Assembly: GCA_946623125.1 (NCBI GenBank)
Contig: CAMOQR010000002.1
Span: forward strand, 1,922-65,921
Direction: 5' to 3'
From: an uncultured Bacillales bacterium
GTDB taxonomy: Bacteria > Bacillota_I > Bacilli_A > RF39 > UBA660
DNA: 64,000 nt
Shown in pieces: positions 21,056-47,656 of this stretch. The notes under the pieces were generated by a model. The model was given only the letters and a program-made list of their open reading frames with translations. It was not told the origin of the DNA and searched no databases. The position numbers were made by a program, and so were the translations under genes. How positions within the stretch are numbered: the first letter of the stretch is position 1; each line of letters opens with the position of its first letter.

Positions 21056-22282
21056 TTAACCTCTTATTTTATGTATTATTTTCATTAATTTATAATGCCA
21101 TGTAATTGGTAATTCAAATTCTCCAATTAATTCTTCTACATATCCATTGAATCCTCTTTTAAATTCATAAATACCATAGTCTTTTGGATGCTCATTTATA
21201 TTCGCTGGAATTCCATAAAAATTATGTTTATCAAATCCATTTTCAATTCCATATTTAATTAGTTCCCATTGAATTAAGTATTGAGAATTAAATTTCATAT
21301 ATTCTTCATAGTTACCACTTGATAGATAAATTACTTCTGGCTTGATTAACATAAACATGGAACCTGATAATGTAATGATTTCTTTTCCTGTTTTTTCTAT
21401 AATCTCTTTGGATTCTTGAATTCTTTTTTCAAATGATGCAATCTCATTTGTAAGATTCTTCTTTGCTCCATCGTTGTATTTTGCATCGCTTAGACTATCC
21501 ATTTTTTCTTGTTTTTCTCTCTTCTCTTTTTCTAGGCCTTCCATGTATTTTTTCAAGTCTAATTCTGTAATAAAGTATTTTACTTCTGCTTGATCATGAA
21601 ATAGTTTATACATTTCTTGAAAGTAAGATAAATCTCTTACTTTAAAATCTTTTCTTGCACCAGTTTCTATCATAATATTTTGGAAACGATCTAATTCATC
21701 ATATCCTATTTCTTTTACTGTAATTCCAAATTTTTCTGTTTTTTTGATTTGATTTCTTGTATTTGGTTTCATTTCTTTTAAGATTTCTTCTTTTGTTTTA
21801 CCTTTTAAATCTAGAGAAAACATCCAAATGACTTGTTCTGTTTGTTCAACTGGTACTTTTTTAAAGCCTAGGTTTTCTAACTCTTCTACTACTTTTCTAT
21901 TATCTTCTCCATCTTCAACTATATTTCCATCTATATCCCTTTGTCTATAGATTAAATAGGGATCTACTCTAAAAATATAGCCTTTCTTTTCTTTGATATA
22001 TTTTTTAATTTCTTCTGTAAAGAAATCTAATAATTCTTTATTATGAAAATCTAATAAATATCCTCTTGGGGAATAAAATTCATATTTATTAAAATGTCTT
22101 TTGTGGGATAGTAACATTGTTGCGGCAATCAATTTTTTATCTTCTTTTACTCCAACATAATATGTTTTCCAATTCTGTTTTTCTCTTAATTTTGATATTT
22201 TTGGAGAAGATAAAAATGTTTTTAAGGGATGTTCTTCCCAAAAGTCGGTATATTCTTTTTCTGTTATTTCTTGAAATTTCAT
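21056..22282 (-). CDS. FemAB-family peptidoglycan interpeptide-bridge aminoacyltransferase
   Basis: 408 aa. It has the typical FemX/MurM layout, with a central coiled-coil insert (EKEKREKQEKMD) between two GNAT-like halves. Confidence 0.75.
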   Translation of the reverse strand: MKFQEITEKEYTDFWEEHPLKTFLSSPKISKLREKQNWKTYYVGVKEDKKLIAATMLLSHKRHFNKYEFYSPRGYLLDFHNKELLDFFTEEIKKYIKEKKGYIFRVDPYLIYRQRDIDGNIVEDGEDNRKVVEELENLGFKKVPVEQTEQVIWMFSLDLKGKTKEEILKEMKPNTRNQIKKTEKFGITVKEIGYDELDRFQNIMIETGARKDFKVRDLSYFQEMYKLFHDQAEVKYFITELDLKKYMEGLEKEKREKQEKMDSLSDAKYNDGAKKNLTNEIASFEKRIQESKEIIEKTGKEIITLSGSMFMLIKPEVIYLSSGNYEEYMKFNSQYLIQWELIKYGIENGFDKHNFYGIPANINEHPKDYGIYEFKRGFNGYVEELIGEFELPITWHYKLMKIIHKIRG

Positions 22283-26555: not shown

Positions 26556-26640
26556 TACGTTCTATCCTTTCTACTCTAGCCTATTATTATTATATCATTT
26601 ATTTTTTTTTATAAAAGACTAAATTCATTATAAGAAACAA

Positions 26641-26662
26641 AAAAAGGGTTTTAACCCTTTTT
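26641..26662 (-). terminator. Rho-independent terminator after the GH25/CW-repeat gene
   Basis: AAAAAGGGTT / AACCCTTTTT inverted repeat followed on the minus strand by TTTTTTGTTTC. Confidence 0.55.
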
Positions 26663-28805
26663 ACATATAGAAATAACTCATGTCTACATTTCCATTAATA
26701 CCTGGAATGCTTCCTTCACTTGTATATTGCCATCCTTCATATGCTCCTTGATAGGTCAATACATCATTCCATTGTGCAACCCATGTTGCATATTGTTGAA
26801 CATCTTCTGGAAATCTTGTTTCAATATAATTCTTTGATGCATATACTCTTGTTTTAATACATAGATTTTTTTCGGTATTGTCTACAAAAGTATTTATCAT
26901 ATCTCTGTAAGTTTCTTTTCCTATTCCGTAACTATTTTCTCCTGTAGATTTTATTTCCCAATCTTCTAGATCATAGTAAATTCCAAATATATTTTTGGCA
27001 ATATGAACATCATTATTTTTAATTGTATTTACTACAAAGTTTGACTCTTTTAGTGCTTCATTTCCGTTTTCGGCATAACTAAAGATATATACAGAATAAG
27101 GAATTCCTACTCTATCTAATTCATTTTTGTTTCTAATAAAGTATTTGTCTACATATCCAATTCCATAACCAAGTCTTAATATTACTGCATCTACTTGTCC
27201 AGATGCTTTTACCATATCCCAATCAATCTTTCCTTGCCATGCAGATACATCAATTACTCTTATTTGTCTTACAAATTTTTCAAACTCTCCTGTTATTGCA
27301 TTAAATTGCCAAAATCTTTCTGCCATATATTGAATTCCTTTTGCTGTAGTACCATCAGGATTTTTATAATATTTCTTTCCATCTATTTCTGTAAAACCTT
27401 CTAATAATCCAGTGTTGTCATCAAATTTGTATTCTCTTCCATCAATTGTTTGAAGTCCTTTTACTAATGATCCTTCCTCTGTTTGATACCAATATCCATC
27501 TGCTGCACTTTGCCATCCATGTTTTAATTTTCCGTTTACTCGACTATAAAAATATCTATTTCCATCTTTTTCTACAAAACCTTTTTGCATAATTCCTTCA
27601 TCATTGAAATAGTATTCATCATTATCGATTATTTGTTTTCCTATTACTAGTGCTCCATCTTTATCTTGATACCATTGTCCTTCGGCTGCTCCTTGCCATC
27701 CATATTTTAAGGCTCCTGTTACCTTACTATAAAAATAGATTTTTTCATTTTCTTTTATAAATCCTGTTTTTAGAAATCCATCATCATCAAAATAATAATG
27801 ATTTGATTCCATTGTAATTTTACCAGTTAATAAAGATCCATCTTCTAGTTGATACCATTTTTTACCGTTTTCTTCATGCCATCCTTCTTTTATAATTCCT
27901 GTTTCTTTATCATAATAATACTTTTTATCTTCTTTTGTGACAAAGCCTTTTTCTAAGAATCCTTTTTCATTAAAACAATATTTTTCATTATCAATTGTTT
28001 GATTTCCTATTAAGAGTACTCCTTCATTATCTTGATACCATTGTCCTTCGGCTGCTCCTTGCCATCCATATTTTAAGGCTCCATTTACTCTACTATAAAA
28101 ATAGATTTTTTCGTTTTCTGTTATAAAACCTTTTTGTAAGAAACCATTTTCATTAAAGTAATATTTGTTACCATCTATTTCTGTTTTTCCTATGGCAAGG
28201 GATCCATCTTCTAATTGATACCATTGTCCTTCTACTGCTCCTTGCCATCCATATTTTAAGGCTCCATTTACTCTACTATAAAAATAGATTTTGTTATTTT
28301 CCGTTATAAATCCTTTTTCTAAGAATCCATTTTCATTAAAATAATAATAATTGCCATCTATTTCTGTTTTTCCTATGGCAAGGGATCCATCTTCTAATTG
28401 GTACCATTGTCCTTCTGCAGCACCCTGCCATCCATGTTTTAAAGCACCTGTTACTCTACTATAAAAATAGATTTTATCATTTTCTCTTATAAATCCTGTT
28501 TGTTGTACTCCATCTTCATTAAAATAATAAATATTATCTTCTATTGTTGTTCTTCCTGTCGCAATAGATCCATCTTCTTGACAGTATATAACATAATCTT
28601 CTATATTCGTCCATCCAGATAGTGTAGGATTTGTTCCATTCAAATAGTATTTTTTCCCATTTATCTCTTTTATTCCTTGATAATAGGTTCCATCCTCTTC
28701 AATAAAATAATACTTTCCTTCTTTTTCTATTAATCCTTCTTCTGCATATACTGGGAAAACTCCAAATATAAAGAATAGGATTAAAAACAACCATTTTTTT
28801 TGCAT
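26661..28805 (-). CDS. Secreted cell-wall-binding-repeat protein with a C-terminal GH25 muramidase domain
   Basis: Sec signal peptide and ~480 aa of CW_binding_1-type repeats. The last ~200 aa carry the GH25 signature VIDVSAWQGKIDWDMVKASGQVDAVILRLGYG. Confidence 0.8.
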   Translation of the reverse strand: MQKKWLFLILFFIFGVFPVYAEEGLIEKEGKYYFIEEDGTYYQGIKEINGKKYYLNGTNPTLSGWTNIEDYVIYCQEDGSIATGRTTIEDNIYYFNEDGVQQTGFIRENDKIYFYSRVTGALKHGWQGAAEGQWYQLEDGSLAIGKTEIDGNYYYFNENGFLEKGFITENNKIYFYSRVNGALKYGWQGAVEGQWYQLEDGSLAIGKTEIDGNKYYFNENGFLQKGFITENEKIYFYSRVNGALKYGWQGAAEGQWYQDNEGVLLIGNQTIDNEKYCFNEKGFLEKGFVTKEDKKYYYDKETGIIKEGWHEENGKKWYQLEDGSLLTGKITMESNHYYFDDDGFLKTGFIKENEKIYFYSKVTGALKYGWQGAAEGQWYQDKDGALVIGKQIIDNDEYYFNDEGIMQKGFVEKDGNRYFYSRVNGKLKHGWQSAADGYWYQTEEGSLVKGLQTIDGREYKFDDNTGLLEGFTEIDGKKYYKNPDGTTAKGIQYMAERFWQFNAITGEFEKFVRQIRVIDVSAWQGKIDWDMVKASGQVDAVILRLGYGIGYVDKYFIRNKNELDRVGIPYSVYIFSYAENGNEALKESNFVVNTIKNNDVHIAKNIFGIYYDLEDWEIKSTGENSYGIGKETYRDMINTFVDNTEKNLCIKTRVYASKNYIETRFPEDVQQYATWVAQWNDVLTYQGAYEGWQYTSEGSIPGINGNVDMSYFYM
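27264..28733 (-). repeat. Intragenic tandem repeats encoding cell-wall-binding modules, related to those at 25655-26483
   Basis: Repeated YFYSRV(N/T)GALK(H/Y)GWQGAAEGQWYQ...YYFNENGFL(E/Q)KGFI units with visible DNA-level repetition. Confidence 0.8.
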
Positions 28806-28897: not shown

Positions 28898-31252
28898 TTA
28901 TTTTCTTATTATTTTAGCAATATTATTTATAATTTTCCATCTTTTGCTATTCTTCATAGAGTCTAGTTCATGTTCTCTTTCTACTAGTTCTAATTTTAAA
29001 TTTGTAATTTCTCTATTTAAGTCATCTATTTTTCTTCTTCTTTGATCAAGCTCATAGGCTGTTTGCCATGAACTTTCTTTTATTCTTTTTTCAACGTTAT
29101 ATCGGTCTATTGGTTTTTTTGGAGATTGGTAAAGATTTGGATGTGTTATTTTTAAATGATCTATTTCTGTTTGTTTGTATAGTAGTTTGTTTTTTATTTT
29201 TTGAAACATTTCTTGTCCTTTTTTAGAATTAACAATTACAACAGATACTCCGTTATTATCAAACATTTCTTCTGCTTCTTCTTTAATTCCCCAATAATCA
29301 CCTAAAATAAGATCTGCTGGGTTGTTTTCTTTATACTTACATTCGTAACAGCTTTCTCTTAATATTACATTGCTAATATATAAAGATAGTAATTTGTCAT
29401 TATTAAATTCATTTGTATATTTATCATATTTCACATGTGATTGTTGCCAACCACGTTCTTTCGTTCTATATTGTAATAATTCTACGTTTTCTTTTTTACA
29501 GTATTCCTCTACTAACGCATCGTTTAATACTCCATGACAGATGACAGATACATAAACTATATTTTTATATTTTCCAATTAGTTTTTTCATGGCTCCTACT
29601 TGACATGGAGTTCCACTAAATAATATTTTTTTATTTGATTTGCAATCTTTTTCTATTAATCCTAATATGTCATCTAATTTACTATAGGAATATTTACTGC
29701 CTCTTATTTTTTGTAAATCTTTTTTATTGTTTACTCTAATATGAGATGTTTTGCCATGAATCCGTTGGGCTCCATACACAACACCTTTTTCTTTTAAAAT
29801 TTCTTCTGCAATGGCAGTAAACACTCCACCTGATGTACTTTCTTTTTGAATATTTATATCCTTATTTTTAGCCGCATAACTTACACTTTGAAAATTCTCT
29901 TTTTTCTCTGGATTCAAAATGGGGCATATCTTTAAACATTTTCCACAATTAATGCATTTATTTGTATCTCTTTGATTATAAGTAAAGTGTAGTTCTGTCT
30001 CCACTTGTTTTATGGCATCTTGTGGACACACTTTTTTACATAGATTGCAATTAATACATTCAGTTGATTTACATATTGCTTTTTTTTCTTGTTCTTCTAA
30101 CTTTTCTATGACTTTTTCAAAGATATGAGATGTGTCTATTTTGATGTTAATCATTTCTTTTTTTAATTTTTCTATGATTTTTTCTCTGCTTTTTTCTATA
30201 TATTGATATTTTTCAATTAGATTAGTACTTGTTAGTTCATCTTTGTTAATTACATAATTTTGATAATCACCAAATAAGTCTTTGGCAATTCCTTTTGATT
30301 TTACAGAATATCCTATTACTAGTGTGGGAACTGCTGTTGAATAGCCAGCAATTGATGCATGAGTTCTTGCAACTATAGCAAATGAACTTTTTGAAATGAT
30401 ATACTTTAATTCTTCACAATCATAGTTTCCTTCTTCTAAATATACTCTTTCTTCCTCTAAAAAATCATGATTAATTCTTGATAGAATTTCCATATCACTA
30501 CAATCTTCTGTTGTTACATGAGGAAGAAGACAAATAGAATATTTTGTTTCTTTTAAAATATATTTTATAAATTCTATAATGGCTTGATATTGGTTTTCAT
30601 TTTTTATTGTCAAAGGAGATAAGTTTATAATCATATATTTTCTATTATTATACCATTCGTTTAATTCTACTTCTTTCATTTTTAGGGAAAATGCAGGATC
30701 TCTTTCAAATATAATTTTATCTTGATCTACATAATCTTTAATGGCTTCTAATGTTAGGCTTTCTCTAATTACTAATACATCAAAATTATTTAGATTATTA
30801 ATCAAATCATGATCCGTTATTTTTTCAAATAAAGATGCTCCCCATAATACTGTTTTTTTCCCTAAATCATGACTTTTTTTATCTAGTGCATATAACCAAT
30901 TACATGGTGGATAACAATAACTATCTCCTCCAATAGAAATACAAATATCTGATTTTTCCATTTGATCTACAACATCTTTTTGGTATAAAAGTTCATAATT
31001 ATTATAATCAAATGGCATTCCTCTATATTTTTCTTCTAAGGCTTTTTCTTCTTCGGTTAAATTATTTTTTCTATTTTGATTGATATATTTTACTTTGTCA
31101 CTATAAAAATGTTTATTATATTCTAAATCATAAGTGGCTATTGTTAAATCATTCTGTTTTAAATCAATTTGATTTATTGTTGAATTAACAATTGCTTCTA
31201 CTCCCCTGTTTTTATATGTTCCTGTTCCATACAAAAGAATTTTTCTTTTCAT
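28898..31252 (-). CDS. Three-part fusion: polysaccharide pyruvyl transferase, 2x[4Fe-4S] ferredoxin, and an FrhB/FdhB-like (coenzyme F420 hydrogenase beta-like) domain
   Basis: Likely start is the ATG at 31252 (MKRKILLYGTGTYKNRGVEAI, a typical pyruvyl-transferase N-terminus). Two CxxCxxCxxxCP clusters are present (CINCNLCKKVCP, CINCGKCLKICP). The C-terminal ~330 aa resemble FrhB_FdhB N+C domains. Confidence 0.65.
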   Translation of the reverse strand: MKRKILLYGTGTYKNRGVEAIVNSTINQIDLKQNDLTIATYDLEYNKHFYSDKVKYINQNRKNNLTEEEKALEEKYRGMPFDYNNYELLYQKDVVDQMEKSDICISIGGDSYCYPPCNWLYALDKKSHDLGKKTVLWGASLFEKITDHDLINNLNNFDVLVIRESLTLEAIKDYVDQDKIIFERDPAFSLKMKEVELNEWYNNRKYMIINLSPLTIKNENQYQAIIEFIKYILKETKYSICLLPHVTTEDCSDMEILSRINHDFLEEERVYLEEGNYDCEELKYIISKSSFAIVARTHASIAGYSTAVPTLVIGYSVKSKGIAKDLFGDYQNYVINKDELTSTNLIEKYQYIEKSREKIIEKLKKEMINIKIDTSHIFEKVIEKLEEQEKKAICKSTECINCNLCKKVCPQDAIKQVETELHFTYNQRDTNKCINCGKCLKICPILNPEKKENFQSVSYAAKNKDINIQKESTSGGVFTAIAEEILKEKGVVYGAQRIHGKTSHIRVNNKKDLQKIRGSKYSYSKLDDILGLIEKDCKSNKKILFSGTPCQVGAMKKLIGKYKNIVYVSVICHGVLNDALVEEYCKKENVELLQYRTKERGWQQSHVKYDKYTNEFNNDKLLSLYISNVILRESCYECKYKENNPADLILGDYWGIKEEAEEMFDNNGVSVVIVNSKKGQEMFQKIKNKLLYKQTEIDHLKITHPNLYQSPKKPIDRYNVEKRIKESSWQTAYELDQRRRKIDDLNREITNLKLELVEREHELDSMKNSKRWKIINNIAKIIRK

Positions 31253-31337
31253 ATACCTACACCGCCCTCGTATATTATCTATTAACATTATATCAAATTT
31301 CTTTTAAAATACAAAAAAAAGATACTTTTTCAGTATC

Positions 31338-33705: not shown

Positions 33706-34479
33706 TTACAACTCTTCTACAAAAGTTCTTTCTAACTTTTTAAATATCATATATCCAACCACTAATATGATAATGCTTAATACAATCCATATTCCTAACC
33801 AATACATATCTGGCATTTTGTGATAATACAGAATTGCTCGATAAGATTCTACTAATACGGCCATTGGATTTATATGCATAACCCACTGAAATTTTTCAGG
33901 TAACATAGATGATAAGTAAACAACTGGTGTTGCATAGAAACCTAAGGTCATCGCAACTTGTACGAAGTGTGCAACATCATTTACAAAAACTGTTACTGCA
34001 GATAAGATTAAATTAATTCCTAATGTTAAAATAAATTGTACAAATACTAATACAGGAAAAAGTAAGAAGTGAATTGAGAATCCTACTCCACTAAATAGAA
34101 TGAATCCAAACATAATTAAACATGTTATTAAAAAGTTTACTAATTGAGATGTTGTAACAGATAATGGAATGATTTCTCTTGGAAAATATACTTTCTTTAA
34201 AATATTACCATTTATTGTTACAGAACTTGTTCCTGTTTGAACAGCTGTTGTGAAAAAATTCCATGGAATTAAGGCTACAATCATAAAAATTGTATAGTTT
34301 TCTACATCTACTCTTAAGATATATGGAAAAACAAAGGCGTATACAGCAAGCATTAATAATGGATTTAAGAATGTCCATAAAACACCTAACCAAGATCCTT
34401 TATATTTTCCTCTAATTTCTTTTTTAATGTTTGTTTTTAATAGTTCACGATAATTGTATAATTCTTTAAATACATTCAT
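33706..34479 (-). CDS. ABC-2-type polysaccharide/teichoic-acid export permease (TagG/Wzm-like)
   Basis: 257 aa with six TM helices and the typical N-terminal YRELLKTNIKKEIRGKYKGSWLGVLW. Confidence 0.8.
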   Translation of the reverse strand: MNVFKELYNYRELLKTNIKKEIRGKYKGSWLGVLWTFLNPLLMLAVYAFVFPYILRVDVENYTIFMIVALIPWNFFTTAVQTGTSSVTINGNILKKVYFPREIIPLSVTTSQLVNFLITCLIMFGFILFSGVGFSIHFLLFPVLVFVQFILTLGINLILSAVTVFVNDVAHFVQVAMTLGFYATPVVYLSSMLPEKFQWVMHINPMAVLVESYRAILYYHKMPDMYWLGIWIVLSIIILVVGYMIFKKLERTFVEEL

Positions 34480-34483
34480 GTTA

Positions 34484-35233
34484 TCACCCGCAAACCTTTA
34501 TATATTCTTGTAGTACTTTGTTGGTCTCTCCATCCATTCGGATTTCTCCGTTGTATAACCAAACAGCTCTATCACAAAACTTTTTAACTTTATCTGTATC
34601 ATGAGTTACTATTACAATTGTTTTTCCTGCTTTTTTTAATTCCATTAATTTTGCAAAACATTTATCTTGAAAGTGTTTATCTCCTACTGCTAAAATTTCA
34701 TCAATTAATAAGATTTCTGCTTGTACATTGATTGCAACAGAAAAAGCAAGTCTCATATACATTCCAGATGAATAAGTTCTTACTGGATTATCAATAAAAT
34801 CTTTTAACTCAGAAAACTCTATAATTTCATCTATTTTCTCATCAATTTCTTGTCTTGTTAATCCAAATATTGACGCATTAAAATAAATATTTTCTCTTCC
34901 TGTAAAATCTTCGTGAAATCCTGCTCCTAATTCTAGAAGTGATGTTAATTTTCCATTTGTTGTGATTCTTCCTTTATTTGGGTAAATAATTCTTGTCATT
35001 AATTTTAATAATGTTGATTTACCACTTCCGTTTGTTCCAATAAGAGCAACGCTTTCTCCTTTTTTTATTTCTAAGTTAATATCTTTTAATACATGTAATA
35101 TGTCGTTTTTATTTTTATTTTTTTTGGAAAAAAATAATAATTTTTCTTTTAAAGTATGTGCTTTATCATAATATAATTTAAAATCTTTTGACACATGTGT
35201 TGCTTTAATTGCTACATCTTTTTCCACACCCAT
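34484..35233 (-). CDS. ABC exporter ATP-binding protein (TagH/Wzt-like, short form)
   Basis: Walker A GTNGSGKST, signature YSSGM, Walker B LLIDEILAVGD. Confidence 0.85.
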   Translation of the reverse strand: MGVEKDVAIKATHVSKDFKLYYDKAHTLKEKLLFFSKKNKNKNDILHVLKDINLEIKKGESVALIGTNGSGKSTLLKLMTRIIYPNKGRITTNGKLTSLLELGAGFHEDFTGRENIYFNASIFGLTRQEIDEKIDEIIEFSELKDFIDNPVRTYSSGMYMRLAFSVAINVQAEILLIDEILAVGDKHFQDKCFAKLMELKKAGKTIVIVTHDTDKVKKFCDRAVWLYNGEIRMDGETNKVLQEYIKVCG

Positions 35234-38205: not shown

Positions 38206-40032
38206 CTACACTTTCTTATTCATTTTTTTATACTTTTCTATAACATTTTGATACAATTCTGGAAACTGTTTTGATTCTTCTTTTAACGCTTTTTCATAAA
38301 GATTTATTTCTTCTTCGTCTACTTCTTTTACTCTTTCATATATTAGAATTTGATAACTGTTATTCATATTGAATATTTTTTTTATTTGAAATTTTTCTTC
38401 TTCTATTAATTTTTCAAATACTTCTTCATATTTATATTCTATAGACATTCTTTCAAATGGAGTTGTTGTAATAATGTATTTTGAGGTGAATAGTTCTGTT
38501 GGGAAAGGATGAACTCCTATGATAGCAGATCCATATGGTAAATATTTTGAAATAGTTTTATCTGGAAGAAATATATTTCTTAATTTATCAGGATTATACT
38601 GATCTGTATGAGTAATCATATAGGCTGTGTTTTGTTCATTTAAATTGTTTTTTAACCAGGTTGCAGCCTCTTTTAATTCTTCATAATCTTCTTGATAAGG
38701 TATTTTTAGATTTACCTCTGTGAAGAATAGATTATTTTTATCCATAAATCCATTCATAAAATTAAAAATCATAATTATTATGATAAGACTTGTTAAATAC
38801 TGTTTTCTTGGAAATTCTTGACAATAATACAAGGTAATCCATGTAAAAAACGTATATGCAGTAACATTCATAAGAGAGTGATGATATCCCATGGCTTGTA
38901 TTCTATTAAATAAAATAATAATGAATAGTGTTTGAAGTATGAATAACCCTGTTTTTTCTCGGTATTCTTTTTTGAATAATCCAATTATTATTCCCATTCC
39001 AATTAGAATACACTGAGAAATTCCTAATATTTTTATTTGATGAATAATCTCATCCAATACTCCTCCATTTTTATAATAGATATAGTGTCCTTGAAAATCA
39101 CTTTCTATGATGTTTTTCATTAAAGGATGAAGAGTAATAATAAATAATATTATGCATATTCCAATATATATACTAGCATTTTTTAAGATCTTTAATAAAT
39201 CTTTTTTATTTGTTCTATTCTTATATAATACTTGTAATCCATAAATCATATAGTAAGTTAAAATCCAATAAATATACCATCTTCTACTAATAAACAAAAG
39301 ATAGGTGTTGATAAAGATTCCTAGTAATCTTCCTATTTCTATTTTTTTAAAATCATAGTGATTTGTTAGGGTTAAAATCATAAAAATAAAGAATAGTCCA
39401 AAGAAATCTGGTTGTCCATATATAGATGTTGCATGTAATAATGGTAATAAGATGAACGTCAATAAACTAAGTCCAAATAATGATTCTTTATTCTTTTGTA
39501 GTAATGTTTTTAAAAATAAAGAGATGGAAAATACAATATAAGGAATTGTTGTTAGAACATAACTTGCTATATAACTGTTTTCTGTTTTATTTGTAAATTG
39601 AAATATCACTTGAGGAATAAATGATAAAAAGTTTCCATAACTTGCAGAATATGTACTGTTTAAAAAATAATAAATGCCTGATTGCAATCCTTGTTGAAAA
39701 CGTTCCATTGTCGTTAATTGGATATTGTAGTAACAAGAGTAATCCCAATAATAGATAAACTTTCTTGTAAGGAGACTTATAAAGTAAAATAGAAAACATA
39801 ATAAAATAGATATTAAAATTGCATGTTTTTCTTTTTTGGTAAAATCTATTTTTAATATTCTTTTTGTTTCTTTTAGAATATTAATGAATAATATATTTAC
39901 CATTATACTTATAAACAGAAAAATTAGGGAATTTATATTCCCTAATGAAATGATTAATAATCCAATTGTGAATACTAATTCTATAATTAAGAATTTTTTA
40001 TTATTTTCAAAAAGATTTTTTATTTCTTTCAT
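38206..40032 (-). CDS. Large polytopic membrane protein, putative GT-C-type (YfhO/ArnT-like) extracytoplasmic glycosyltransferase
   Basis: 608 aa with ~13 TM helices and a C-terminal soluble domain. Its start overlaps the stop of the upstream CsbB/GtrB-like GT2 gene as ATGA. The functional call is by context only. Confidence 0.4.
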   Translation of the reverse strand: MKEIKNLFENNKKFLIIELVFTIGLLIISLGNINSLIFLFISIMVNILFINILKETKRILKIDFTKKEKHAILISILLCFLFYFISLLTRKFIYYWDYSCYYNIQLTTMERFQQGLQSGIYYFLNSTYSASYGNFLSFIPQVIFQFTNKTENSYIASYVLTTIPYIVFSISLFLKTLLQKNKESLFGLSLLTFILLPLLHATSIYGQPDFFGLFFIFMILTLTNHYDFKKIEIGRLLGIFINTYLLFISRRWYIYWILTYYMIYGLQVLYKNRTNKKDLLKILKNASIYIGICIILFIITLHPLMKNIIESDFQGHYIYYKNGGVLDEIIHQIKILGISQCILIGMGIIIGLFKKEYREKTGLFILQTLFIIILFNRIQAMGYHHSLMNVTAYTFFTWITLYYCQEFPRKQYLTSLIIIIMIFNFMNGFMDKNNLFFTEVNLKIPYQEDYEELKEAATWLKNNLNEQNTAYMITHTDQYNPDKLRNIFLPDKTISKYLPYGSAIIGVHPFPTELFTSKYIITTTPFERMSIEYKYEEVFEKLIEEEKFQIKKIFNMNNSYQILIYERVKEVDEEEINLYEKALKEESKQFPELYQNVIEKYKKMNKKV

Positions 40033-40988
40033 TCTTTTTCCTCTAAATTCTCGGCAATAATAAATCTTGGCCTTTGTTTTGTTTCACTATACATTTTTCC
40101 AACATATTCTCCTATGATTCCTATTGATATCATTTGTAATCCTCCAATAAACCAAATAGAAATTGATAAGAATGTCCATCCACTTACAGTGTTTCCTGTT
40201 AAGAAACGGATAAGAGAATAAATCATGATTGCAATACTTACAAATAAAATTACAAATCCTAATGTACAGATTAATCTTAATGGTTTTACACTAAATGAAG
40301 TAATTCCATCCCAAGCAAAATTTAACATCTTTTTTAATGGGTATTTTGATTCTCCCGCAAATCTTTCATTTCTTTCATAATAAACAATATCTGATTTAAA
40401 TCCTACTAATGGGAACATTCCTCTTAAAAATAGATTTACTTCTTTAAAGTTTTCAAATTCATCTAATACTCTTTTTGATGTTAATCGATAATCTGCATGA
40501 TTATATACACAGTCTACTCCTAAAACTTTCATAAATTTATAGAAGCCTTCTGCCGTTACTCTTTTAAAGAAAGTATCTTTTTTTCTTGCACTTCTTACTC
40601 CGTATACAATATCCTTACCCTCTTTATATTTTTCAATCATTTCATCCATAGCATTGATATCATCCTGTAAGTCTGCATCCATTGATATTACAATATCTGC
40701 ATATTTTTTAGCAGTCATTAAACCACCAAGTAATGCATTTTGATGTCCTCTATTTCTTGATAAAGTAATTCCTGTAAATAATTTTTCTTTTTGATGAATT
40801 TCTTGGATAATATCCCAAGTTTTATCTTTTGATCCATCATTTACATACATTACTTTACTTTTTGGAGAAATCTTTTTTGTCTTTATTAGTTTCTCCATCT
40901 TTGCTTTTAATTGTCTTGTTGTTTCTTCTAATACTTCTTCTTCATTGTAGCATGGAACTACTACGTATAATATTGGTTCTTTTTTCAT
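40029..40988 (-). CDS. Polyprenyl-phosphate glycosyltransferase (GT2, CsbB/GtrB-like, two C-terminal TM helices)
   Basis: ATG at 40988 with an AGGAG RBS. Motifs: LYVVVPCYNEEEV, VNDGSKD, DADLQD. Two C-terminal TM helices end in GEYVGKMY. Confidence 0.8.
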   Translation of the reverse strand: MKKEPILYVVVPCYNEEEVLEETTRQLKAKMEKLIKTKKISPKSKVMYVNDGSKDKTWDIIQEIHQKEKLFTGITLSRNRGHQNALLGGLMTAKKYADIVISMDADLQDDINAMDEMIEKYKEGKDIVYGVRSARKKDTFFKRVTAEGFYKFMKVLGVDCVYNHADYRLTSKRVLDEFENFKEVNLFLRGMFPLVGFKSDIVYYERNERFAGESKYPLKKMLNFAWDGITSFSVKPLRLICTLGFVILFVSIAIMIYSLIRFLTGNTVSGWTFLSISIWFIGGLQMISIGIIGEYVGKMYSETKQRPRFIIAENLEEKE

Positions 40989-41046
40989 ATTATTCACTCC
41001 TAAAGTCATTATATCAAACTTTTCTTTTATTTGACAAATTTCCCCT

Positions 41047-43737
41047 TTATTCTTCCGTTTCTTCTAGTATCCAAAGTAATAATTCAGATGCTGACCAGGT
41101 ATGAAGTGGTGATATTTTTCCAATTTGCATTTCTGTATCTAATCCTTCATAGTTATCATATTTTGCTTGTGAGGCATTAATCTCCCATGATAATGGATAA
41201 AGTGATTGATTCATTGTAATCTTACCAAATCCTAGTTTATGTCTTGTGGCATAAGATAAGTAAGGATACTCAAGAGATTCTATTGCATCTTTATCTTTTA
41301 CTTCGTAATCACTCCACCATGCCATATTGGTATATCCATCTTCTGCTACCGAATCAATATCAAAGTGAAAGTCTTTTCCTACTGATTCAATTCCTAATTT
41401 GTACCATAGATTTTGATATAAGTACATATCGCCAAAATCAGTTTTTCCTTTTATATAATATCCATCTTCATTTTCATTTGCTATTCTTTCAGCTTCGTCT
41501 TCTATTTTTTGAATCAATTCTTTATTCTTCTCATCTTGTGTTGATAGGATATATAATAACTCTCCAAGATTATCGGCTTCTTCCACTCCATCATTTTGTT
41601 TGTCATATATTTCTGTTATATTTTTAACCCAATCTTTTATTAAATCTAAGTTATTGGTCTTTTTTAGTACCATACACGCAAGTGCCGCATCTCGATACCA
41701 TGGTTTATCATATACAATAATATTAGGATAAATTACACTGTCTTTTATGTTGAATAAGATTTCTCCATATAATACTTTCTTTATATTTGAATATTTTTGA
41801 TTTGAGAAATCATATAATTCTATTTTTTTATTTGTTCCATCTAAAATCTTATCTTTTCCATTTACGATATAGTGAACTCCTTCTTCATCTTCTTTTATTT
41901 TGATTTTATCTCCTGATTTTGTTTCTATTACTACTGTATATAAGTTTGGAATAATCATATGTTCTTTTTCTTGAAAATGAATAATTTCTTTTTTTGTTTC
42001 TATATCAATGATTCTATTGTTTCTATATAAATATTTTTTTCTGTTTCCTAGTCCTAAATAATAGTAATCTGACCAGTTCGTTCTATTTGATAATTCTGGT
42101 TTATATTCTTCTATAAACTCTTTATATTCTTTTTTATAATGATCTAATTCTTTTAGTTCTTCTTTAAACGCTTTTTTGAAACTTTCATCTAAGTATTCAC
42201 TTTTTGATTTAGCGGCTACTTCCCCGCTTAGTCCTTGTGTGTGGAATAGTAACCATTTATGATTAAATGGTGCTGATTCTAGAGAAATAAAAATAGATTC
42301 TATTCCTATTACTAGGACAAATAGTAGAACTGAATATACTATTTTCTTTTCTTTTTTCTTTTCTTTTTTAATTTGTTGATATATTTCTCTTATTCCAAAT
42401 ACTATGATTGTAACGAGTATGATTAATAAAGCCTCAATAATTGTTGTTTTCACAAACCCAAAGTTTGCTATTAAATAGGTATTATTTAATGTTTCTTTTA
42501 CTAGTTTTAAACATTTCACAAAAATAATATTATTATTGATAAATTCATATACTAGGAATAATCCTAAAAAGTATGTAATATATTTTTTGTATTTTTTATT
42601 ATTTTCTGTTGTAAGATTTACTCCTAATAATAACATAATAATATAGATAAAATGTAGAGAATATAGGAATGCTCCATTATTTCCATAAAATAAATGTAGT
42701 GCTGTATTAAAGCCAAGTGATAGTAATAATCCTATATTTAGATATTTTTGTTTTTGAAAGTTTCTAATAATCATTCCTAATGTAATGATATAGAAAATAG
42801 TTAGTATGATGATGTTTATTAGATTTTGATTTTGAAAATTAATAATATAATTTTGTCCATTATAATCTGTTCCATAGATAATTCCCATTCTGATATTGCT
42901 TCCAATCATAGAATTGAAATAATCATCTGTTACTACATTTTTAATGTTACGGATTGATAATTGTTTTTCTGAAAAGCTTTTTTGCTCCCCTGCTACATTT
43001 GTTTTCCATATTAGTGGAGTATTATTCCAGATTACTTTTTGAGTTACATTTAAGAATACTACTCCCATTAGTGTTGCAATTCCAATTATGATAATATTTT
43101 TTGTATTTATTTTTTTTGTTATCCATAATAAGAATAATAGTATTAAAAAGATAATACAATTTGTTAGAGTAAATGCAAATGATAATATTCCTAATATTAT
43201 TAAAATAATATAGGAAAAAATATCATATTTATCTTGTTTTTGTACATAGTAATACCACATCATAATTAAAAATAATGCTGCAAAATTATAGGTTTCAATT
43301 CCTGATGTAAAAATGATATTGGAAAAAGAAAATAAATATAGAAGAGATATGATAATATTTTCTTTTTTTCCTTTATTGATGTGTTCTAGGATTCGATAAA
43401 GATATAATACTGATAATGCAGATACAAGGGCTGATAATATGGAAATAGCAATTGCTTTATTTAGTACAATTCCTTTTATTAAGAATACCACTGGTTGAGT
43501 CATTAATACAAATAAAGGATGAACACTTAATCGATAGTGTTCTGCACCTATTTCTGTTGCATCTCCTATTACTCTGGCTGTATCAGAATCGAATAATAAA
43601 TTATAATTGTGATCTACTTCATAATTGTATGTTAATAGGATGGTTGTGAAGACTAAAAATAAAAAGGAAAAAAGAAATAGTTTTGTCTCTTTTTTCTGTG
43701 GAAGTAGTTTAATTATTCTTCTTTTTATGTTTTCCAT
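41047..43737 (-). CDS. Polytopic membrane protein (GT-C-like) fused to a ~400-aa extracytoplasmic domain with six-hairpin-glycosidase-like motifs
   Basis: 896 aa. The N-terminal ~480 aa have ~13 TM helices. The C-terminal domain contains PWYRDAALACMVL and PLHTWSASELLLWI, reminiscent of GH15-type (alpha/alpha)6 enzymes; this is a weak call. Confidence 0.4.
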   Translation of the reverse strand: MENIKRRIIKLLPQKKETKLFLFSFLFLVFTTILLTYNYEVDHNYNLLFDSDTARVIGDATEIGAEHYRLSVHPLFVLMTQPVVFLIKGIVLNKAIAISILSALVSALSVLYLYRILEHINKGKKENIIISLLYLFSFSNIIFTSGIETYNFAALFLIMMWYYYVQKQDKYDIFSYIILIILGILSFAFTLTNCIIFLILLFLLWITKKINTKNIIIIGIATLMGVVFLNVTQKVIWNNTPLIWKTNVAGEQKSFSEKQLSIRNIKNVVTDDYFNSMIGSNIRMGIIYGTDYNGQNYIINFQNQNLINIIILTIFYIITLGMIIRNFQKQKYLNIGLLLSLGFNTALHLFYGNNGAFLYSLHFIYIIMLLLGVNLTTENNKKYKKYITYFLGLFLVYEFINNNIIFVKCLKLVKETLNNTYLIANFGFVKTTIIEALLIILVTIIVFGIREIYQQIKKEKKKEKKIVYSVLLFVLVIGIESIFISLESAPFNHKWLLFHTQGLSGEVAAKSKSEYLDESFKKAFKEELKELDHYKKEYKEFIEEYKPELSNRTNWSDYYYLGLGNRKKYLYRNNRIIDIETKKEIIHFQEKEHMIIPNLYTVVIETKSGDKIKIKEDEEGVHYIVNGKDKILDGTNKKIELYDFSNQKYSNIKKVLYGEILFNIKDSVIYPNIIVYDKPWYRDAALACMVLKKTNNLDLIKDWVKNITEIYDKQNDGVEEADNLGELLYILSTQDEKNKELIQKIEDEAERIANENEDGYYIKGKTDFGDMYLYQNLWYKLGIESVGKDFHFDIDSVAEDGYTNMAWWSDYEVKDKDAIESLEYPYLSYATRHKLGFGKITMNQSLYPLSWEINASQAKYDNYEGLDTEMQIGKISPLHTWSASELLLWILEETEE

Positions 43738-45244
43738 TTTTATCTTCCTTTCCCTCTATTTCAATATAGTTCTTATGGTAAATTATGGTTGCTGGTTCAT
43801 TTAACCAATTATCTCTATCCTCTGAAAAGTCACAATAATAGATTGGATATGGATAATATGTTAATGGTTTAAATGTTACATCTTTTATGGAATCATCTTC
43901 TAAAACCTTATATCTTTCTAACCACTCTTTTTGATAAGTTTTATGTTCATTCGTTCTAAGTAAAGCAAGTGTTTGATAAGATGTTAAATCCTCTCTTCCA
44001 TAATATAGAGCCAGTCCTAATACCATTAATACCGTTCCTAATAATAGAAAGGAATTATCTTTGATATATTTATTTCCTAATTCTGCTGCATTTTTTGTAG
44101 TAATTTTATTTGTCTTTAGAACATTTCTAAAGTATCCTACGATGTAGTATAAAGATATAACCATAAAGAATAAGTAACTAAAATATATAATATTTAGTAA
44201 TCTTCCTTCTCCTGTTGATGACATAGAATATAGTGTTGGAGTAAATTCTGCGGATAATATACAATACATAAATAAAACTACTATTAATGGATAAGAATAC
44301 TTTTTCTCTACCTTTTTATAAGTTGGATATAATAAATATCCTATTATTAATATTACAATTATATTAATTGCATTTGTCCATTCTGTCATAAATTTTAGAC
44401 AGAAATAGAATGATAAAATAATTGCTTTAACAGGATTCATTCCTGTTACATTTTTTTGTCTAAATTTATTTCCTGGTGCTGTTGCACTGATTCCTAGACC
44501 TAGAATAGAAATTGCTAGATATGGAAGTGCAGACTTATCTTTCTTTATGATTAGTAAATAGATATTTAAGAAGAATAGAATTATTACTTGTTGAAGGGCA
44601 ATAATGAAGTTTCCTCCTCCAATGATTCCTATTAATAAAAGAAGAATTATCGTATTTGTTTTTGTCTTTTCTTTTAACCAATATTGTTTTATTAATAAAG
44701 CAAATTCTAATAGTTCTAATGAGAAGAATATAATATAATAACTTGCTCCATTCCACCAATATAGACCTTGTGTTTTATCTACTAGTGTTTCCATACATAA
44801 TAAGAAAAATAATAATAATACAATCCAATAAGATTTTTTATCTAGTTTTAGTGCTTTTACTAGTAGTTGTTTTAATAAATAAGCAAGACTTAAAAAGAAG
44901 ATTCCTAATACTAAGAAAGTAGTTAAAAAGTAAGCGTTTTTCCCTAATATTCCAGGGTTTAGGCTGAATAAAATAATTGCAGAATAAGTTCCTTGCCATG
45001 TATGATAGAATTCATTTAACGTTTTGAATGATCCCGTAACTACCTTCCCTATTCCTTCTGTTTGTAAAACGTTCATGGTCTCTTTTCCATAACTAAAATC
45101 ATCTGCAGATGGAACGGTATAAAAAGATACCCATAATACAGGTACTAATAAAAGTATTGTTATTAGAATTGTAATTATTAGAACATTTTTTTTGGTTATT
45201 AGTTTGTTTAAGGCTTGATTCCATTTTTTCATTTTTTGTTGCAT
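43709..45244 (-). CDS. Polytopic membrane protein, possibly a GT-C-type glycosyltransferase
   Basis: 511 aa with ~12 TM helices and a short C-terminal soluble tail. It lies directly downstream of the UbiA/HAD pair. No motif recognised. Confidence 0.4.
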   Translation of the reverse strand: MQQKMKKWNQALNKLITKKNVLIITILITILLLVPVLWVSFYTVPSADDFSYGKETMNVLQTEGIGKVVTGSFKTLNEFYHTWQGTYSAIILFSLNPGILGKNAYFLTTFLVLGIFFLSLAYLLKQLLVKALKLDKKSYWIVLLLFFLLCMETLVDKTQGLYWWNGASYYIIFFSLELLEFALLIKQYWLKEKTKTNTIILLLLIGIIGGGNFIIALQQVIILFFLNIYLLIIKKDKSALPYLAISILGLGISATAPGNKFRQKNVTGMNPVKAIILSFYFCLKFMTEWTNAINIIVILIIGYLLYPTYKKVEKKYSYPLIVVLFMYCILSAEFTPTLYSMSSTGEGRLLNIIYFSYLFFMVISLYYIVGYFRNVLKTNKITTKNAAELGNKYIKDNSFLLLGTVLMVLGLALYYGREDLTSYQTLALLRTNEHKTYQKEWLERYKVLEDDSIKDVTFKPLTYYPYPIYYCDFSEDRDNWLNEPATIIYHKNYIEIEGKEDKNGKHKKKNN

Positions 45245-45258: not shown

Positions 45259-45837
45259 CTATTTTTTTATTTTATTCTTATCTAATTTTATAATTTCATT
45301 TTTTTTCACTAAATAAGCATTTTGTGCATAATGAAACATTGGGTAATCTGCAGAAATAGAGTCAGAATAAAAGTTTTTTATTTTTTGATTAGGATACTGT
45401 TCTTCATACCTCTTTATTTTTTCATAATCATGACAGTTTTTTGATATAAATTTTCCTGTTTTTTTGTCAACAATTGATGCAATTATTTTTACATTTAATT
45501 TTTTTTCTAATGGTTTTAATAAGAATTCTGGTGATGCAGAAATAATAACATCACTTGATTTTTGTTGCTTTTTATACCATTCTTTTATATTTATTATTTT
45601 TATATTCCAAAACTCATCAATTAAATCATCTACCGAGTTCATTCTTTTTAAAAAAGAAAAAATATGTTCTTTCATTGCTGTTTTATCAATTTTTTTTAAT
45701 TTATATAAAATAACTCCTTTTATTTGAGATGGAATATCTAATAATACTTTTTTATTTTTTTTGAGACAAAAAAAGTAAAAGTCAATGGATGAGTCTCCAT
45801 CATATATAGTCTCATCAAAGTCATAGGCATTTATCAT
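45259..45837 (-). CDS. HAD-superfamily phosphatase
   Basis: HAD motif I is present as YDFDETIYDGDS at the N-terminus. The start overlaps the UbiA-like stop as ATGA. Confidence 0.65.
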   Translation of the reverse strand: MINAYDFDETIYDGDSSIDFYFFCLKKNKKVLLDIPSQIKGVILYKLKKIDKTAMKEHIFSFLKRMNSVDDLIDEFWNIKIINIKEWYKKQQKSSDVIISASPEFLLKPLEKKLNVKIIASIVDKKTGKFISKNCHDYEKIKRYEEQYPNQKIKNFYSDSISADYPMFHYAQNAYLVKKNEIIKLDKNKIKK

Positions 45838-46703
45838 AGATAAAGAATTCCTCCCATTACAATTACATAAATAATTGCTGTTATTAATAATTTTTTATCT
45901 CCTAGTAATACTTCAATTGGATCCCCATGAGAGTTTCCTTCTATATCTAGACTATATAGTTGTAATATAATCATTAATAATGGAATTGTCCAGAATAAAT
46001 AATCATTTCCTATTCTTGATATTGTAGTTGGATCTACACACCATAATGTATAAGATACAACAGCAAGAGCAAGAGATACATACATGTTTTTATCTAGGAA
46101 ACTTTCGTTGTATCGTTCTAGTACTTTTCTGCTTTTTTCTCCATTTTTCATCATTTCATTCCGTCTTTTTCCAAATCCTAAATAGAATGATCCAAAGATA
46201 ATCATTAAGTATAAGTATTTTGATACTTCTACATTAACGATTACTCCTCCATACATTACGCGGAATACAAATCCTGATACTAATATCACTACATCAATAA
46301 TTGGTACATTTTTTAATCCATTACTATATAAAATATTTAAAAATAAATAACAGAATGGAATAATAAAAATAAAGATATTATTCTCTTTTATATATAATAG
46401 ACTCATTAGTGAAACTGCAAAAATACATAATAGACCAATTATTATTTTTGCTTCTGTTACTTTTACTTTTCCACTAGCAAGTGGTCTATTCTTTTTAATG
46501 GGATGTAGTTTATCTTTTTCAATATCTTTCATATCATTTATTACATAGACAATACTTGATATAAATGAGAATATGAAAAAACCAATGATTCCTTTTTCTA
46601 AATAAGTAGTATTTAACATATTTAGGCTAAAAAATATTGGTAAAAAAATTAATCCATTTTTTAACCAGTGTTTTGCACGTATTAGTTTTATATAATTTTT
46701 CAT
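45834..46703 (-). CDS. UbiA-family polyprenyl-phosphate phosphoribosyltransferase (decaprenyl-phosphate phosphoribosyltransferase-like)
   Basis: True start is the ATG at 46703 (MKNYIKLIRAKHWLKNGLIF). The track ORF extends to 47078 only because the frame stays open across the upstream gene. The Asp-rich motif NDMKDIEKDKLHPIKKNRPLASG matches my memory of the DPPR-synthase signature. Confidence 0.75.
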   Translation of the reverse strand: MKNYIKLIRAKHWLKNGLIFLPIFFSLNMLNTTYLEKGIIGFFIFSFISSIVYVINDMKDIEKDKLHPIKKNRPLASGKVKVTEAKIIIGLLCIFAVSLMSLLYIKENNIFIFIIPFCYLFLNILYSNGLKNVPIIDVVILVSGFVFRVMYGGVIVNVEVSKYLYLMIIFGSFYLGFGKRRNEMMKNGEKSRKVLERYNESFLDKNMYVSLALAVVSYTLWCVDPTTISRIGNDYLFWTIPLLMIILQLYSLDIEGNSHGDPIEVLLGDKKLLITAIIYVIVMGGILYL

Positions 46704-46717: not shown

Positions 46718-47656
46718 TTATTGTTCTTTTTCTGTTTCTTTTATAATGTATACTGGGCGTTGTTTTACTTCTAAATATATTTTTGAAAGATATAATCCAA
46801 TGATTCCCAAGAAGAATAGTTGAATTCCACCGACAAAAATAATAATACATGCCATAGATGGCCATCCTGTTGCAGGATCTCCCCAAATAATTGTTTTTAA
46901 TATGATAAATATAATTGCTAGGAACGATACTAAGCAAAAGAACATTCCAACATATGCTGACATAATCAGTGGTGTTGTTGAGGATGATGCTACTCCTTCT
47001 ACTGCATATTTTATTAATTTTCTTAAATTGAATTTTGATGTTCCAGCACTTCTTTTTGGTGCTTGATAGGATATCCATTTTGTTTTAAATCCAATATAAC
47101 CATAAATACCTTTTGTATATCGATTATACTCCTTTAATGATAAAATTGCATCTACCATTTTTCTTTTCATTAATCTAAAATCTCTTGCACCTGGCATTTG
47201 CTTTGAATCAGATATTTTATCGATTAATTTATACCAAGTATTTGTTAGAGATCTTCTTATCAAATTATAATCTTTATGAGAATCGGTATATAATGCCACG
47301 CAGTCATAATCTTCTTTCTCTAAAATCTCATACATTTCGATTATTTTTTCAGGTGGATCTTGTAAGTCGACATCAAGTATTGCAGCATAATCACCCGTTA
47401 CAGCATTTAATCCTGCAAACATTCCTGCTTCTTTTCCATAATTTTTAGAAAAGGATATGTATCTTACTCTTTTATCTTCTTTAGAGTAATCTCTTATAAT
47501 TTTTAATGTATTATCTTTTGATCCATCATCTATAAAAATTAATTCAAATTCTTGATGAGGCATTTTTTCCATGACTTTTTTCATTTCTTCGTAAAAGATT
47601 GGAATGGCTTCTTCCTCATTATAGCATGGTATTATCAATGATATTTTCTTTGACAT
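46718..47656 (-). CDS. Polyprenyl-phosphate glycosyltransferase (GT2, GtrB/ArnC-like, two C-terminal TM helices)
   Basis: Motifs: ISLIIPCYNEEEAI, IDDGSKDNT, DVDLQDPP. Two C-terminal TM helices. Confidence 0.8.
   Translation of the reverse strand: MSKKISLIIPCYNEEEAIPIFYEEMKKVMEKMPHQEFELIFIDDGSKDNTLKIIRDYSKEDKRVRYISFSKNYGKEAGMFAGLNAVTGDYAAILDVDLQDPPEKIIEMYEILEKEDYDCVALYTDSHKDYNLIRRSLTNTWYKLIDKISDSKQMPGARDFRLMKRKMVDAILSLKEYNRYTKGIYGYIGFKTKWISYQAPKRSAGTSKFNLRKLIKYAVEGVASSSTTPLIMSAYVGMFFCLVSFLAIIFIILKTIIWGDPATGWPSMACIIIFVGGIQLFFLGIIGLYLSKIYLEVKQRPVYIIKETEKEQ

Follow-up and report, generated by a model that had tools for sequence, protein, structure and literature searches.

We describe here two overlapping genes in a glycan locus of an uncultured Bacillales bacterium, found in a stretch of 64,000 nucleotides (the window) of contig CAMOQR010000002.1 in the assembly GCA_946623125.1. 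Both genes lie on the minus strand. The first (45834-46703) encodes a UbiA-family protein of 289 aa, which Pfam, NCBIfam, a PDB match and conserved residues point to as a polyprenyl-phosphate 5-phosphoribosyltransferase (PPPRS) like the mycobacterial Rv3806c. The second (45259-45837) encodes a HAD-IB phosphatase of 192 aa, predicted from Pfam, the TIGR01490 model, its motifs and its linkage to UbiA to be a phosphoribose 5-phosphatase (PRP). In the direction of transcription, the locus reads GT2, GtrB1, UbiA, HAD, DUF6056 (511 aa), an 896-aa protein, GtrB2, a 608-aa protein, GT2, acyltransferase, SGNH and ABC exporter. It is quite probable, in our view, that the pair makes a lipid-linked ribofuranose donor from phosphoribosyl pyrophosphate (PRPP), with which a wall glycopolymer would be decorated outside the cytoplasm. 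The enzyme identities are predicted from homology and conserved residues, and the pairing is proposed from genome comparisons and domain fusions; which lipid, final sugar, flippase, transferase and acceptor take part is inferred.

The Pfam E-values confirm that both open reading frames (ORFs) are real and did not arise by chance (UbiA, PF01040, E = 9.7e-22; HAD, E = 1.7e-13). An earlier interpretation made from the letters of the stretch without database searches (the sequence-only reading) had noted that the UbiA stop overlaps the HAD start via ATGA and that the HAD protein bears the motif DFDET. Both can be seen: positions 45834-45837, 'tcat' on the plus strand, give ATGA in the coding direction, a 4-nt overlap of the UbiA TGA stop with the ATG of the HAD gene, and the HAD protein begins with MINAYDFDET. 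About 10 nt 5' of the HAD start there is a Shine-Dalgarno-like purine run, GGGAGGAA, and the UbiA gene has a similarly Shine-Dalgarno-like GAAGGA 6 nt 5' of its start. An alternative UbiA frame of 414 aa (to 47078) runs into the upstream GT2 gene. The shorter start, giving 289 aa, is the correct one, since more than 100 UbiA homologues have a length of 289-290 aa, with alignments that begin at residue 1.

The sequence-only reading had assigned the UbiA protein to the decaprenyl-phosphate phosphoribosyltransferase type, and a placement with hidden Markov models (HMMs) put it in the same group; clustering with menaquinone or heme O prenyltransferases was not seen. The top three NCBIfam models are all decaprenyl-phosphate phosphoribosyltransferases (211.9 bits for NF008977, 198.7 bits for NF008978 and 157.7 bits for the third), while the models for UbiA, MenA, heme O synthase (CyoE) and the digeranylgeranylglyceryl phosphate (DGGGP) synthase type reach 16-50 bits. 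The HAD-UbiA fusion family PRK08238 (482 aa) scores 161.7 bits. When the PDB was searched, the sole strong match was Rv3806c (8j8j; E = 3.1e-36, residues 4-285), and the next best was a DGGGP synthase with E = 2.8e-7.

We then compared the substrate-binding residues using the 8j8j alignment. In Rv3806c, the pyrophosphate is bound by R22, K87, R90, K143 and Y138, the Mg2+ ion and ribose by N73, D77 and Q135, and the 5-phosphate and lipid phosphate by K28, Y70, Y157, K191 and K208 (PMC10994848). The window protein has the identical pyrophosphate set (R9, K70, R73, K131 and Y126), N56, D60 and N123 in the Mg2+/ribose set, and K15, Y53, F145, K179 and K193 in the phosphate set. That is, 11 of the 13 residues are identical and two are conservative replacements (Q135 to N123 and Y157 to F145); some mycobacteria themselves carry Phe at the Tyr157 position (PMC10994848). 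Among 40 diverse homologues (35-62% identity) ten of the 13 are invariant, including N56, D60, R9, K70, R73, K131 and Y126, and the exceptions, in either invariance or identity, are K193, F145 and N123-versus-Q135. The protein contains the N-D-x-x-D-x-x-x-D motif for Mg2+/PRPP and the pyrophosphate-binding K/R cluster (residues 56-78 read NDMKDIEKDKLHPIKKNRPLASG), as well as the residues that separate the Rv3806c type from prenyltransferases (K15, Y53, N123, F145 and K179). It is most likely, judging from these conserved residues, a PRPP-dependent PPPRS of the Rv3806c type.

The HAD protein matches the HAD-IB model TIGR01490 with E = 1.4e-17, and its motifs I (D6-x-D8-x-T10), II (S100/S102), III (K140) and IV (D159...D164) are invariant or nearly so in comparisons with 50 relatives and 24 family members. 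Since the catalytic motif begins as early as residue 6, there is no signal peptide or transmembrane segment, and the protein is therefore expected to act in the cytoplasm, where the lipid-phosphate-ribose-5-phosphate forms. One of the UbiA-family representatives at 50% identity, P0205 (498 aa), is a natural HAD-UbiA fusion. It aligns with positions 94-480 of the model for the fused family PRK08238, and its HAD domain and the window HAD share 44% identity (E = 4e-38). The predicted role of the HAD protein is most likely that of the 5-phosphatase partner of UbiA.

To put the pair into context, we used a comparison set of 80 UbiA loci from named genomes, the hosts being uncultured Bacilli and Clostridia of gut or rumen, Solibacillus, Clostridium puniceum, Christensenellaceae, Saccharibacteria and a spirochaete. 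UbiA has a glycan-locus context in all 80 relatives, and an ABC ATPase homologue is present in 40 of the loci. A HAD homologue lies within the fetched DNA in 53 loci and adjoins UbiA in 43; in 39 it stands directly downstream on the same strand, and 14 of these 39 have the 4-nt overlap. Within the genus, UbiA and HAD share one locus in nine out of ten cases, despite rearrangements and inserted genes. The UbiA gene itself was found in 11 of 24 sampled congeners and is therefore an accessory trait. In a phage collection, the sole UbiA homologue came from one unannotated 6.6-kb record, and the phage system to which Kelly 2024 refers could not be located in that collection.

The HAD homologues differ in their domain architecture. 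Stand-alone proteins make up 26 of the 53, and 19 (305-342 aa) bear a C-terminal GtrA flippase domain, which the GtrA HMM matches in all 19 and Pfam verified in four. These HAD-GtrA fusions are located directly 3' of UbiA, in Solibacillus, Clostridium puniceum, Christensenellaceae and gut metagenome-assembled genomes (MAGs); examples are L057:10864-11820, L075:3544-4524, L097:8921-9895 and L087:5453-6454, to which 15 further loci can be added. Eight HAD homologues are joined to large GT-C-like membrane proteins, giving products of 663-772 aa (L026:9790-11877, L024:12834-15152, L043:9323-11509 and others). Furthermore, two UbiA representatives combine a GT-C-like N-terminal domain with a C-terminal PPPRS: in P0160 (1094 aa) the N-terminal polytopic domain is PgfM/YfhO-like according to NCBIfam, and in P0134 (740 aa) it matched no family. 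Since HAD is found fused with UbiA, with GtrA and with GT-C proteins, the synthase, phosphatase, flippase and transferase steps are linked. A consistent gene grammar emerges in Bacillota, in which UbiA follows a GT-C gene and precedes HAD, the latter either alone or carrying the fused GtrA domain. The comparative data are of greater use than the single locus. As a separate observation, UbiA and a HAD-GT-C-like fusion form a minimal two-gene module among the housekeeping genes cysS and lysS in one congener (G001; locus L043/L020).

The same two activities are known as one protein from Citrobacter youngae O1/O2, where ORF15 consists of an N-terminal HAD phosphoribose phosphatase and a UbiA-type PPPRS (Kelly et al., PNAS 2024, PMC11127046). 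ORF15 produces farnesyl-phosphate-ribofuranose (Ribf) from PRPP, and its HAD mutant D18A accumulates the 5-phosphate product (PMC11127046). The other parts of this 'three-component' system are the MATE flippase ORF14 and the GT-C enzyme ORF12, which is the founding member of GT136; the lipid-linked pentose can be diversified by the epimerases ORF13 or DprE1/E2 (PMC11127046). Candidate systems were pointed out in Gram-positives, none of them characterised (PMC11127046). The suggestion of the sequence-only reading that a HAD enzyme takes the place of the mycobacterial PAP2 phosphatase is in line with the role shown for the HAD domain of ORF15 (PMC11127046).

In the window, as in Citrobacter, a UbiA-type PPPRS and a HAD phosphatase would yield a lipid-phosphate-Ribf donor, a GT-C enzyme would use this donor outside the cytoplasm after polymer synthesis, the acceptor glycan would be ABC transporter-dependent and, without an epimerase, the sugar would remain Ribf. 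The differences lie in the arrangement and in the partners. The window has two coupled genes with HAD downstream, whereas in ORF15 the HAD domain is N-terminal in one protein; the host is a Gram-positive Bacilli MAG, with no MATE and no flippase in the locus; DUF6080-like or DUF6056 proteins would take the GT-C role, and there are two extra GtrB-type hexose donors. On the evidence of homology and gene order, we regard the window pair as a split, translationally coupled form of the fused phosphatase-PPPRS module of ORF15.

A second system is that of Clostridioides difficile Ox247 (SLCT-11), whose surface-layer (S-layer) glycan bears alpha-Ribf branches; in an orf4 mutant the ribose is missing (Richards et al., JBC 2018, PMC6254364). 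Table S1 of that study lists orf4 as a PRK12324/PT_UbiA_2 phosphoribosyltransferase and orf5 as YfhO, and the authors took orf4 for the ribosyltransferase itself (PMC6254364). The likeness to the window is that of a Firmicute with an ABC transporter-dependent glycan and a UbiA-type gene adjoining a GT-C gene, and the orf4 mutant is genetic proof that such a UbiA-type gene supplies ribofuranose. Unlike the window, the Ox247 locus lists no HAD gene in Table S1, its GT-C protein is of the YfhO type and the acceptor is an S-layer protein O-glycan.

We propose that the UbiA enzyme would transfer 5-phosphoribose from PRPP to polyprenyl phosphate, presumably undecaprenyl phosphate, at the cytoplasmic face of the membrane. 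The product would be polyprenyl-phosphate-beta-D-5-phosphoribofuranose, from which the translationally coupled, cytoplasmic HAD-IB phosphatase would remove the 5-phosphate to give polyprenyl-phosphate-ribofuranose. The lipid-linked sugar would cross the membrane with the help of a flippase, probably of the GtrA family, for which no gene was found in the window. A GT-C enzyme of the locus (the 896-aa protein is favoured, with DUF6056 second) may then attach ribofuranose to the wall glycopolymer as a side branch. The acceptor polymer is probably made by the ABC-exporter glycopolymer locus. Within a three-component system for pentofuranose glycosylation, the pair would most likely be the half that makes the donor.

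Several observations weigh against this proposal. The NCBIfam scores of the UbiA protein are slightly under the curated equivalog cut-offs (211.9 against 234 for NF008977 and 198.7 against 207 for NF008978). In 27 of the 80 UbiA loci there is no HAD homologue in the fetched DNA, and the linkage of the phosphatase to UbiA is therefore not obligatory. Only two of 24 stand-alone HADs match the proteobacterial fused-family model NF006088, which served as a proxy for ORF15, the best with E = 5.6e-4. A search of solved structures did not find a phosphoribose phosphatase: the single HAD sequence had no matches, and its profile matched only the generic HAD-IB structure 3fvv. Neither a GtrA nor a MATE gene was found in the locus with Pfam, and GtrA (PF04138) was not found in the MAG of the window (G000; 1.14 Mb in 41 contigs, 71% complete). 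Finally, this one locus holds three lipid-phosphate-sugar synthases and three GT-C-like polytopic proteins, which makes the matching of donors to transferases ambiguous.

The default prediction for the donor sugar is ribofuranose. Alternatively, the pair could make polyprenyl-phosphate-ribofuranose while an epimer of it, arabinofuranose or xylofuranose, is transferred, the epimerase being encoded elsewhere or belonging to an unrecognised family. There is a precedent in Citrobacter, where the added epimerase ORF13 turns the donor into xylofuranose and the GT-C enzyme is promiscuous (Kelly 2024, PMC11127046). The incompleteness of the MAG leaves room for such an enzyme, and three weak matches of the PF01370/SDR type are found on its other contigs. 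We nevertheless regard this alternative as unlikely. ALO, the Pfam marker domain of DprE1, is absent from the MAG and from all 47 genomes of the genus, of which 18 are of high quality and which include UbiA-positive genomes that are 94-98% complete; the same search was positive in the control, Corynebacterium. The locus contains no epimerase according to Pfam, and a 332-aa epimerase cluster from 11 of the 80 related loci, considered as a lipid-pentose epimerase, turned out to be GalE. The sole strong SDR epimerase in the MAG is likewise GalE, on another contig. Since there is no DprE1 marker in the MAG or in the 47 genus genomes, we predict ribofuranose rather than arabinofuranose. The sequence-only reading had left both sugars open, and its ribofuranosyl variant is favoured, while arabinofuranosyl via an epimerase elsewhere has lost ground with the ALO search. 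Its observation that the window has no DprE1/DprE2-like oxidoreductases holds among the window ORFs that were scanned with Pfam, where none was found (seven ORFs at 11313-22282 and 62730-63962 lay outside the scan).

Two further epimerase candidates were rejected. The single FAD_binding_4 match in the MAG, a 305-aa frame, is too short for DprE1 and is probably a candidate MurB. Proteins of 256-274 aa and 462-464 aa that flank UbiA in other loci are not DprE2-like or DprE1-like.

A different objection concerns the phosphatase. The HAD protein may act on another phosphorylated intermediate of the glycopolymer pathway, so that the 5-phosphate would be removed by another enzyme or kept as a phosphoribosyl decoration. 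HAD-IB enzymes are functionally broad, and the nearest NCBIfam equivalogs of the window protein, histidinol-phosphatase and PgpC, match with low scores; the weak direct similarity to the characterised fused family and the 27 loci without a detectable HAD homologue also fit this explanation. We find it quite improbable, given the natural HAD-UbiA fusion, the 14 loci with the 4-nt overlap, the fusions of the HAD family to GtrA and GT-C-like proteins, always beside UbiA, and the D18A mutant of ORF15, which shows such a role for a HAD domain (PMC11127046). A PAP2 domain was not found by Pfam in any protein of the locus. It is highly improbable that the UbiA protein is just an ordinary prenyltransferase of the aromatic or quinone/heme kind, standing beside HAD by coincidence: prenyltransferases dominate the Pfam family PF01040, but the prenyltransferase models stay at or below 50 bits against some 212 for decaprenyl-phosphoribose (DPPR) synthase, the Rv3806c-specific residues for phosphoribose and pyrophosphate are conserved, and all 80 relatives are found in a glycan-locus context.

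The mycobacterial decaprenyl-phospho-arabinose pathway comprises Rv3806c, the PAP2 phosphatase Rv3807c, DprE1/DprE2, Rv3789 and the GT-C enzymes of the Emb/Aft type. The window shares with it the homologous first enzyme and a predicted lipid-linked pentofuranose donor for GT-C enzymes. Unlike in mycobacteria, there is HAD instead of PAP2, no DprE1/DprE2 was found in the scans described above, so arabinofuranose is not expected, and the lipid is presumably undecaprenyl instead of decaprenyl phosphate. The sugar is predicted to be a side-chain decoration, whereas mycobacteria build an essential arabinan polymer. The GtrABC or CsbB-GtcA-YfhO systems are three-component hexose glycosylation systems of O antigens and Gram-positive wall polymers, with a small GtrA flippase and a GT-C transferase. 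They resemble the proposed pathway in using a lipid-phosphate-monosaccharide donor; furthermore, the window locus contains two GtrB modules, and in relatives GtrA is fused to the HAD family. On the other hand, their donor comes from a UDP-sugar through a GT2 enzyme, whereas the window donor would start from PRPP and require a polytopic UbiA-fold enzyme together with a phosphatase.

A GtrA domain was found in 44 of the 47 genomes of the genus, including all 18 high-quality ones; one congener has it at a distance of 2 kb from UbiA. Because so many genus genomes have GtrA, and 19 relatives carry it fused to HAD, the flippase gene of this MAG is probably in its unassembled part or encoded elsewhere.

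The close neighbourhood of the pair contains further donor synthases. GtrB1, a GtrB/PgfS-like GT2 protein of the polyprenyl-phosphate-hexose synthase type (312 aa; 46718-47656, minus strand), lies 14 nt 5' of UbiA and matches Pfam Glycos_transf_2 (E = 6.6e-35) and, over their full length, the NCBIfam models PgfS (E = 2.9e-86) and ArnC-like (E = 7.3e-45). GtrB2, also GtrB/PgfS-like (326 aa; 40029-41009, minus strand), matches PgfS with E = 6.8e-73. The sequence-only reading had pointed to three large polytopic proteins after the pair. They are indeed present (511, 896 and 608 aa), yet they cannot all be attributed to the pentose donor, since the locus has two GtrB-type synthases and since the families of DUF6056 and of the 608-aa protein pair with GT2 enzymes in loci without UbiA. 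A sequence search of solved structures gave no match for any of the three.

Directly after HAD comes the 511-aa DUF6056 protein (43709-45244, minus strand), a GT-C protein of the GT_STM0557_N (GtrC) type (Pfam PF19528, E = 7.3e-12). Its structural model has a predicted local distance difference test (pLDDT) score of 92.8, and the best Foldseek matches are the GT-C enzymes STT3, AglB, DPY19, AftA/B and ArnT. As it adjoins HAD, we had first assumed that it was the pentosyltransferase. This assignment was downgraded, since the family is of the GtrC type, occurs always with GtrB (present in five of five UbiA loci bearing DUF6056) and stands beside a GT2 enzyme in a locus without UbiA (L114, where DUF6056 follows GtrA and a GtrB-like GT2). 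DUF6056 more likely works with a GtrB-type hexose donor, and as the ribofuranosyltransferase it is our second candidate, with the chances somewhat against it.

The favoured candidate is the 896-aa polytopic protein (41047-43737, minus strand), which AlphaFold2/Foldseek and hhalign describe as a DUF6080-like GT-C membrane domain with a C-terminal outside domain. Its AlphaFold2 model has a pLDDT of 87.9 and its top Foldseek matches are all GT-C enzymes (ALG12 with E = 6.6e-5, Pmt1/2/4, STT3, AftB and ArnT); for this model, as for that of the 511-aa protein, GT-C enzymes are the only meaningful matches. The membrane domain aligns to the DUF6080-like family of about 550 aa with an hhalign probability of 93.9% (E = 1.6e-7). 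That family flanks UbiA in 15 loci, of which 12 have no GtrB gene, is joined to HAD in locus L043 and provides the sole GT-C candidate in the Lactococcus cassette described below. What weakens the case is that the 896-aa gene adjoins GtrB2 in most loci of the genus. Based on the modelled fold and the related family, we would put the chances that this protein is the ribofuranosyltransferase at about even. The C-terminal part of some 400 aa is a well-modelled extracytoplasmic domain, beta-rich and helical, that follows the GT-C module; squalene-hopene cyclase appears among its weak Foldseek matches, which suggests that part of it resembles an (alpha/alpha)-barrel.

The third polytopic protein (608 aa; 38206-40032, minus strand) has no Pfam annotation and overlaps the stop of the upstream GtrB2. 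None of the 113 homologues in its family has a Pfam domain spanning the family, and in loci L110-L112, where no UbiA is nearby, a member of the family comes right after a GtrB-like GT2 (318-321 aa). It is a probable partner of the GtrB2 hexose donor, its family being probably an undescribed GT-C-like hexosyltransferase family, and we consider it an unlikely ribofuranosyltransferase.

Pfam has no model for the commonest partner of UbiA in the comparison set, a different family of about 575 aa. This family was seen in 33 loci; in 24 its gene stands immediately upstream of UbiA, and 15 of its loci lack GtrB. We were not able to find any member of this family or of the DUF6080-like family of about 550 aa in the MAG of the window (71% complete) by tblastn. 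A remote kinship of the window proteins to the 575-aa family was considered and rejected, hhalign giving the 608-aa protein a probability of 18% and DUF6056 one of 0.7%. The GT-C candidates, whether DUF6080-like, DUF6056 or from the unannotated families, are probably outside GT136. More tentatively, the 575-aa and DUF6080-like families may be new pentofuranosyltransferase families outside GT136, with the 896-aa protein among the transferases, and the fusion of HAD to GtrA or GT-C proteins may couple dephosphorylation to flipping or transfer; we hold this combined view to be possible but rather doubtful. If it is true, the phosphatase fusions ensure that only dephosphorylated lipid leaves the cytoplasmic face.

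A compact cassette that may encode the same pathway is found in dairy Lactococcus. The eps cassette of plasmid pF27D of Lactococcus cremoris F.2.7 (NZ_CP068515.2, 8614-11733; L121) consists of a DUF6080-like protein of 462 aa, a PPPRS, a HAD-IB phosphatase and GtrA, the last three being labelled by PGAP as 'decaprenyl-phosphate phosphoribosyltransferase', 'HAD-IB family phosphatase' and 'GtrA family protein'. As in the window, UbiA and HAD are split (43% and 48% identical to the window proteins, respectively) and stand in the same order, with the DUF6080-like polytopic protein first. Unlike the window, this Wzx/Wzy-type cluster is carried on a plasmid, has no GtrB gene and has GtrA directly next, with only 83 aa as annotated. 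This exopolysaccharide cassette is a genetically tractable model of the pathway.

The mechanism put forward by the sequence-only reading is thus supported, while the idea is not new: this type of pathway has already been published for C. difficile in 2018 (PMC6254364) and for Citrobacter in 2024 (PMC11127046), and the window pair is a further example. It leaves the present understanding of the pathway unchanged and adds a Gram-positive example from gut and rumen to an established route of glycan diversification. What remains novel are the uncharacterised Gram-positive GT-C families, that is, two candidate families of ribofuranosyltransferases, and the network of fusions. The ribofuranose branches predicted on the wall polymer of an uncultured lineage of Bacilli would be relevant to phage receptors and host recognition.

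Further downstream, the locus contains an ABC-2 exporter pair of permease and ATPase (33706-35233, minus strand; Pfam ABC2_membrane, E = 3.4e-22, and ABC_tran, E = 2.8e-22). At 28898-31288, we find a 796-aa protein in which a polysaccharide pyruvyl transferase is joined to a 4Fe-4S / F420-hydrogenase beta-subunit-like domain, an arrangement that is kept in related loci. Just downstream of the glycopolymer locus (24975-28805) there are two proteins with choline-binding repeats, a GH25 muramidase and a C39-like peptidase, which hints at choline on the wall polymer. Elsewhere in the window, at 9994-10722, a 242-aa protein carries an ADP-ribosyltransferase exoenzyme domain (PF03496, E = 5.5e-18).

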